The notes under the pieces are model-generated. The model had not been told where the DNA came from and did not search any database. It saw only the letters and a program-made list of their open reading frames with translations. DNA of 36,403 nucleotides from a virus (Duplodnaviria > Heunggongvirae > Uroviricota > Caudoviricetes): IMG/VR virus record IMGVR_UViG_2675903318_000021, one strand, 5' to 3'. A program made the position numbers and the translations under genes. Shown piece by piece: positions 25,484 through 25,864 of the stretch; position 1 is the first letter of the stretch, and every line of letters begins with the position of its first letter.

Positions 25484-25864
25484 AGTATTTTAGCTGCGCT
25501 GTCCTGCTATGCAGCAAAGCGGCGTACTTTAATGCGTCCTGTGCTTTCTGGAATTTAAGTGCATAGTCAGTGGCGATTTTTTCCAGTTCAGCGATTCGGT
25601 TGTCTTTGGTTTCCAGCCAATCAAGTAGCGCCAATACTTCAGGATCCCGACATCCAACACTGTTACGTGTGATTTTTCATAATGTTCGTCGGCAAGAGTT
25701 CGGCCAATTTTGAAATCTCCATCATCACCATAACCGGAGCAGGCATAAACAACCTGTGCTCCAGATATTCGCTGAATTGACATTTCCTCGCCGCAAATAG
25801 GGCATTTCGGTACTGGCACAGGTGAATAACGTTCACGTAATGCCTGATAGTTGATTTCGCTCAT
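25484..25864 (-). pseudogene. Zn-finger/coiled-coil protein gene apparently split by a +1 frameshift at an A5 run (about 25670-25676)
   Basis: Frame A encodes MSEINYQALRERYSPVPVPKCPICGEEM...YACSGYGDDGD; a second frame downstream is open and encodes a clean helical peptide DPEVLALLDWLETKDNRIAELEKIATDYALKFQKAQDALKYAALLHSRTAQLKY ending at 25484. Confidence 0.4.

Follow-up and report, generated by a model that had tools for sequence, protein, structure and literature searches.

An ead/Ea22-like gene carrying two sequential lesions in a P2-like prophage of Escherichia coli

Introduction

How can a single gene carry its protein in two reading frames? On the minus strand of the window, by which we mean the whole 36,403-nucleotide stretch of viral DNA analyzed here (IMG/VR record IMGVR_UViG_2675903318_000021), the first 73 codons of one gene lie in one frame and the rest of it in the -1 frame. 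We are interested in which of the two frames holds the ancestral protein, where the frame was broken, and whether the break is an artifact, a switch, a recoding signal, or an inherited mutation. A sequence-only reading had proposed a zinc-finger and coiled-coil gene interrupted, and perhaps recently inactivated, by a single-base frameshift. That core idea is supported by the match to Pfam PF13935 and by the conservation among homologues described below, and the interpretation was right in kind, although it erred in the site of the lesion, in its direction, and in two of the three causes suggested.

The ead/Ea22 family takes its name from ead of phage P22 and ea22 of phage lambda. Lambda Ea22 belongs to the early proteins, is non-essential, and favors lysogeny. 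It is a tetramer, in which a short N-terminal part is followed by a long coiled coil and then by a variable C-terminal domain (PMC7093339, PMC10834534). The pro-lysogenic phenotype, namely more lysogens and slower induction, comes from experiments on lambda and phi24B (PMC7093339).

Two reading frames at one locus

The ead/Ea22-like remnant as a whole occupies positions 25482–25864 of the minus strand, from the ATG at 25864–25862 to the TAA stop codon of the second frame (frame B) at 25484–25482, as delimited from the sequence and its translations, RefSeq, and Pfam PF13935. The open reading frame that starts at this ATG (frame A, 25529–25864, minus strand) encodes 111 residues as it stands, composed of 73 native residues (MSEINYQALRE...VTVLDVG) followed by 38 out-of-frame residues (ILKYWRYLIGWKPKTTESLNWKKSPLTMHLNSRKHRTH). 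Codons 1–72 (25649–25864, minus strand) make up the N-terminal domain, conserved in a 14-sequence alignment, with the putative C3H zinc-ribbon ligands C21, C24, C42, and H61. In the translation of the minus strand, a second protein-like frame (DPEVLALLDWLETKDNRIAELEKIATDYALKFQKAQDALKY...) runs on to the stop at 25484–25482. This frame-B segment (25482–25646, minus strand) corresponds to residues 74–127 of the repaired protein, a long amphipathic helix (coiled coil) that is now out of frame. On the descending strand, the codon starts fall at 1 mod 3 before the break and at 2 mod 3 after it. The two-frame observation of the sequence-only reading is real, with coordinates essentially as it had given them. 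The location of the gene on the minus strand and its missing 3′ end, the older and larger lesion, were absent from that reading.

Reading from the sequence, we identified an AAGGAG Shine-Dalgarno sequence (25874–25879, minus strand) 9 nt 5′ of the ATG, and the truncated 111-residue product could therefore still be translated. The list of open reading frames also contains a separate-frame entry at 25482–25634 (50 residues, with a TTG start at 25634), which encodes ...ALLDWLETKDNRIAELEKIATDYALKFQKAQDALKYAALLHSRTAQLKY. A product restarting from this TTG is unlikely, as it is preceded by no Shine-Dalgarno-like sequence.

Frame B belongs to the ancestral protein

Pfam PF13935 (Ead_Ea22) matches the repaired 127-residue product continuously, with residues 2–116 aligned to profile positions 1–110 at 101.3 bits (E-value 8.6e-29). 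The as-is 111-residue product scores 53.7 bits, and its match covers residues 2–72 and nothing past residue 72. Both products exceed the gathering threshold of 27 bits. The locus is a member of the ead/Ea22-like family by score, in agreement with its RefSeq name, and the two-frame signal is far beyond chance. The orthologue, gp56 (YP_009877445.1) of Escherichia phage P88_4B11 (Xuanwuvirus, Peduoviridae), which represents the cluster P0001 "ead/Ea22-like family protein", reaches 113 bits against the same profile.

The 14-sequence alignment comprises the window copy and 13 homologues of 49–89% identity from E. coli, E. albertii, E. marmotae, and Salmonella. Just past the break, in the stretch DPxV-LALL, the 13 homologues all share L84 and nearly all share D74, P75, V77, L80, and L81, and the frame-A tail of the window has no counterpart in any of them. 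The comparison with orthologues, which the sequence-only reading had put forward as a check, thus found frame B conserved at the protein level and the frame-A tail not conserved. In the window, no single open reading frame runs without a break from the N-terminal segment through the coiled coil to the C-terminal domain, which is the plan of lambda Ea22 (PMC10834534). The window copy is a pseudogene of the ead/Ea22 family and probably not a working member, because the frame of the coiled coil is lost after codon 73 and foreign DNA has taken the place of the C-terminal domain.

A one-base deletion in a G run

To place the break, we compared the window in an alignment with E. coli M8, E. coli RM8352, and phage P88_4B11, three relatives whose gene is in frame. 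The sole indel within the gene among the four sequences is in a G run, where GTCGGGGATCC in the relatives corresponds to GTCGGGATCC in the window. The lesion is the GGG run at 25646–25648 (minus strand; CCC on the plus strand), which is GGGG in the in-frame relatives, so that one base pair has been deleted between codons 72 and 74. Putting one G back computationally yields the 127-residue open reading frame. With a base deleted, reading continues in frame -1 and not in frame +1. The sequence-only reading had instead assumed a single-base insertion with a +1 frame at the A5 run, at about 25670–25676. The A5 run (25673–25677, minus strand; alignment columns 254–258) is the same in all four sequences and is not the lesion, which lies 27 nt further downstream. 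The residues EKSHVTVLDVG, encoded between the A and G runs, retain the first frame and are conserved. A frame break is better placed by alignment than by the nearest homopolymer. A linked substitution was found at 25668 (minus strand), where the window has CAC (His66) and the relatives have CGC (Arg66). Arg66 is nearly invariant in the family according to the 14-sequence alignment.

Distribution of the deletion among E. coli genomes

We searched complete E. coli genomes with an 81-nt stretch centered on the G run and found matches in 206 genomes. The GGG deletion is present in 22 of them, namely 21 genomes identical to the window and strain PapRG-04-4. The remaining matches listed span 82 nt, one base above the query, save two partial matches and PapRG-04-4, so that about 90% of the alleles in the 206 genomes are in frame. 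The 21 exact-match genomes originate from a wide range of laboratories and countries, and all carry R66H; where a serotype is stated, it is mostly O103:H2, O103, or O45:H2. PapRG-04-4 has GGG without R66H, is the sole exact match to its own 81-mer, and shows three further substitutions 3′ of the break as well as decay of other genes. The near-identical 111-residue product forms a protein cluster (P0015) with 32 members in independent public assemblies. [quoted passage not shown] In practice, GGG together with R66H could be used as a clonal marker for the P88-like prophage lineage in O103:H2/O45:H2 STEC.

An earlier replacement of the 3′ end

The first 124 codons of the P88_4B11 gene are 98–99% identical in DNA to the window copy, and both genes follow parM and stbB-like genes at the right-hand end of the genome, adjoining cos. 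However, gp56 is intact, with 196 residues, and retains GGGG, Arg66, and the 73 residues of its own C-terminal part, whereas the window copy has one G fewer and its entire C-terminal part is gone. The cluster of the intact 196-residue protein has 486 members. In a blastn comparison, the homology between P88_4B11 and the window ends at window position 25495 and picks up again at 24782. The last 73 codons of ead and 38 nt of downstream DNA, together 258 nt of P88_4B11, are exchanged for a 712-bp cassette in the window (24783–25494), with the junction between 25494 and 25495. The cassette has a GC content of only 38% as opposed to 52% for the whole window.

The cassette bears an open reading frame of 176 residues (24861–25391, plus strand; hypothetical protein WP_000711113.1), which is convergent with ead and has two strongly hydrophobic segments, at approximately residues 5–28 and 77–107. 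We found no match for it in Pfam or PADLOC. In M8, RM8352, and PapRG-04-4, the corresponding gene bears the annotation of a "frameshifted" pseudogene of 576 nt. An in-frame ATG lies 5′ of the 176-residue frame in the window, at 24816, but reading from it is cut off by a TAA at 24846–24848, for which reason the 176-residue form may itself be a shortened version.

The truncated junction occurs in about 74–77 complete E. coli genomes and the full-length 3′ end in about 162–167. All 22 genomes with GGG carry the truncated junction, and the 1-bp deletion therefore arose in an already truncated allele. Homologues that stop soon after the coiled coil are common (e.g., cluster P0035, 157 residues, 116 contigs), so the replacement of the 3′ end alone may not have inactivated the gene.

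In each of the four genomes inspected, RefSeq lists a pseudogene at this locus, described as "incomplete; missing C-terminus" in M8 and RM8352 and as "frameshifted; incomplete; ..." in 2011C-4251 and PapRG-04-4, the word "frameshifted" appearing only with GGG. For identical DNA in NZ_CP027388, the entry reads [quoted passage not shown]. The locus is thus already known as a frameshifted pseudogene from public annotation.

Domain organization and relatives

The four residues C21, C24, C42, and H61 are invariant in the 14 sequences, and a C3H zinc ribbon is a plausible assignment for the putative N-terminal Cys/His module. The zinc-ribbon matches in Pfam are weak (13–16 bits, all below the cut-offs), NCBIfam gave only a sub-threshold match to a topoisomerase zinc finger, and the PHROG families matched have no annotated function. 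We used the AlphaFold2 (AF2) model of the orthologue P0001, which is of low confidence (pLDDT 61), for secondary-structure boundaries only. It contains short β-hairpins, including those at residues 29–41 with a pLDDT of about 65–72, one long helix spanning residues 75–125, and a small C-terminal domain. According to this low-confidence model, the helix begins at the frameshift and ends at the cassette junction. The intact orthologue found no match at E ≤ 1 among the sequences of solved structures. The structure of the C-terminal domain of lambda Ea22 is therefore uninformative for the C-terminal domain of the P88-type protein.

Lambda Ea22 resembles the P88-type protein in its membership in PF13935 (100.9 bits), in the MSEINxQALRE start, and in having a variable C-terminal domain after a coiled coil. 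It differs in that pairwise similarity is confined to the first 11 residues, in lacking the Cys/His module of about 60 residues, and in its location in the exo-xis region of a lambdoid phage as opposed to the gpA-gpQ region of a P2-like phage. The gene in the window is located between gpA and gpQ, not between exo and xis with transcription from pL as is lambdoid ea22. Because sequence, Cys/His module, and genome position all differ, carrying the function of lambda Ea22 over to the window gene is a weak argument. Proteins of the lambdoid Salmonella phages ES18 (gp41) and ST64B (sb32) and of the P1-like phage D6 share the Cys/His N-terminal domain and the beginning of the coiled coil, with 51–52% identity, but have other C-terminal parts and reside in other phage backbones. 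The ead/Ea22 family is therefore mosaic and swaps modules, as the same N-terminal module is combined with different C-terminal parts.

Interpretation of the two lesions

We consider it very likely, with a probability of roughly 0.92, that the locus is the non-functional remnant of an ead/Ea22-like accessory gene that suffered two sequential lesions in a P2-like prophage of E. coli. The 3′ 258 nt of an ancestral gene for 196 residues, comprising the C-terminal domain and a short spacer, were replaced by the foreign, AT-rich 712-bp cassette, which carries the open reading frame for a small membrane protein. The remaining 127-residue frame retained only the N-terminal zinc-ribbon-like domain and the coiled coil. 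Subsequently, one G was lost from GGGG where the N-terminal domain meets the coiled-coil helix, and with the resulting -1 shift translation would produce 73 native and 38 nonsense residues. The window gene has probably lost its function, because the 111-residue product would lack the oligomerizing helix and the C-terminal domain and has a substitution of a nearly invariant arginine. The retention of a strong Shine-Dalgarno sequence and of an intact 72-residue N-terminal domain speaks against loss of function, and some residual or altered activity of this domain is conceivable. By analogy with Ea22 of lambda and Stx phages, the ancestral protein may have been a non-essential oligomeric modulator of the lysis-lysogeny balance.

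Among the causes suggested by the sequence-only reading, a sequencing or assembly error in a gene that is really in frame might be suspected, since homopolymer indels are a common artifact and most relatives have one G more. However, the 81-nt GGG stretch is identical in 21 complete genomes of diverse origin, the deletion also occurs in PapRG-04-4 on another SNP background, and the frame-A product recurs in the 32-member cluster from independent assemblies. A run of three or four bases is not error-prone on current platforms. With GGG in 22 complete genomes, we regard an error as excluded for practical purposes. A phase-variable (contingency) switch by slipped-strand mispairing in the G run, the other cause proposed, would fit an indel within a mononucleotide run of which both lengths occur in the species. 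Slippage becomes frequent from roughly 7–8 nt, whereas the tract here is 3 or 4 nt long. A contingency locus would have a long homopolymer or short tandem repeat within its coding sequence, with several lengths between close relatives; here we saw only these two lengths. The linkage of GGG to the nearby R66H substitution and the 100% identical flanks in 21 of the 22 genomes point to one or two old, clonally inherited events, and the gene was already without its C-terminal domain. Phase variation is accordingly unsupported and highly improbable. Alternatively, a programmed -1 ribosomal frameshift or transcriptional slippage could restore the 127-residue product, as the shift needed is indeed -1 and at a G run. 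There is, however, no slippery heptamer of the form X XXY YYZ in GAU GUC GGG AUC (GAUGUCGGGAUC), a P-site slip from GGG to CGG mismatches, and transcriptional slippage needs much longer runs. The fact that about 90% of the alleles are plainly in frame argues against a conserved recoding signal, and we give recoding next to no credence.

The 111-residue product could also be a functional shortened protein, in which a stand-alone zinc-ribbon-like N-terminal domain is retained as useful or neutral-to-beneficial. The start codon, the Shine-Dalgarno sequence, and the first 72 codons are intact and, 5′ of the break, identical to those of the relatives save R66H, and the remainder of the prophage looks intact in this lineage. 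However, R66H alters a nearly invariant residue, the additional substitutions 3′ of the break and the other decayed genes in PapRG-04-4 are consistent with drift, and none of the homologues listed is a conserved natural protein ending at this boundary with a comparable tail. We consider this explanation unlikely, although the least improbable of the alternatives. It is somewhat less probable still that the 73 native residues with their basic 38-residue tail are expressed in O103:H2/O45:H2 strains as a monomeric decoy against full-length Ead/Ea22-like proteins of co-resident lambdoid/Stx prophages. Such a decoy would shift the lysis-lysogeny balance of these prophages and thereby the release of Shiga toxin. 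Decay by a cassette swap followed by a 1-bp deletion, the reading we prefer, is of little wider significance, being an ordinary and already flagged case of routine accessory-gene decay in a prophage.

The prophage and its accessory region

The window, which extends from pgsA and the tRNA-Gly/Cys/Leu genes (1–1003) to the integrase gene (35402–36403), contains one complete-looking P2-like prophage. The host element is an integrated P2-like (Xuanwuvirus/P88-like) prophage of E. coli. Save for one insertion, the window has 99.98% identity to a prophage of strain 2011C-4251 (5 mismatches and 1 gap over 35.2 kb). Strain 2011C-4251 has an insertion of the IS3 family of roughly 1.3 kb by the tRNA-Leu end (36378–37687 of the segment compared), which is absent from the window (approximately 1204–1206). 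A 124-nt exact repeat at 949–1072, overlapping the 3′ part of tRNA-Leu (917–1003), recurs beyond the integrase gene, just outside the window, as seen in the comparison with 2011C-4251 (949–1072 of the segment compared). These repeats are presumably the att repeats of the prophage. At the tRNA-side end, a gene for a Hok/Gef-family toxin is annotated at approximately 2015–2155 (minus strand).

The pseudogene is located 3′ of parM-like and stbB-like genes, between the replication gene A (endonuclease gpA) and the portal gene Q. This cos-proximal gpA-gpQ slot of P2-like phages is a hotspot of accessory-gene turnover, for which E. coli shows 1,650 arrangements (Rousset et al. 2022, PMC9122126). The genes old and tin of P2 are cargo of the same genomic slot (PMC9122126), and the cassette swap in the window is typical of the hotspot. 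Despite the location between gpA and gpQ, a role in defense found no support for the hotspot proteins, as PADLOC gave no defense match for any of the four (the Ead orthologue, the ParM-like and StbB-like proteins, and the 176-residue protein).

The immediate upstream neighbor is a Plasmid_stab_B (ParR/StbB-like) gene (25928–26239, minus strand; RefSeq and Pfam PF10784, 85.9 bits), preceded on the same strand by a gene for a ParM-like actin-type segregation ATPase (26244–27203, minus strand; RefSeq). Together they constitute a plasmid-type partition pair (25928–27203, minus strand) within a chromosomal P2-like prophage, which is conserved in P88_4B11. Between the stbB-like gene and ead lies a perfect GC-rich hairpin, CAGGGCGAACTCGCCCTG (25902–25919), which is terminator-like only for plus-strand transcripts, i.e., those from the convergent 176-residue frame into the ead remnant.

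On the other side of the cassette, the stretch between the portal gene and the cassette (24331–24860) is poor in open reading frames and presumably represents the cos region. A palindromic run, AAAAAACGCGTTTTTTT, is found in this stretch at about 24669–24685, and a hairpin, GTGCACAAATTTGCAC (24757–24772), lies within a 46-nt stretch shared with the right end of the linear P88_4B11 record. Elsewhere in the prophage, a serine O-acetyltransferase-like gene (approximately 9657–10229, plus strand), named after the RefSeq annotation of a near-identical prophage, adjoins the tail-fiber assembly gene. The position beside this gene is the second classic moron site of P2-like phages. In M8 and RM8352, ead is in frame and the replication endonuclease gene A is annotated as frameshifted; different copies of this prophage decay at different genes.
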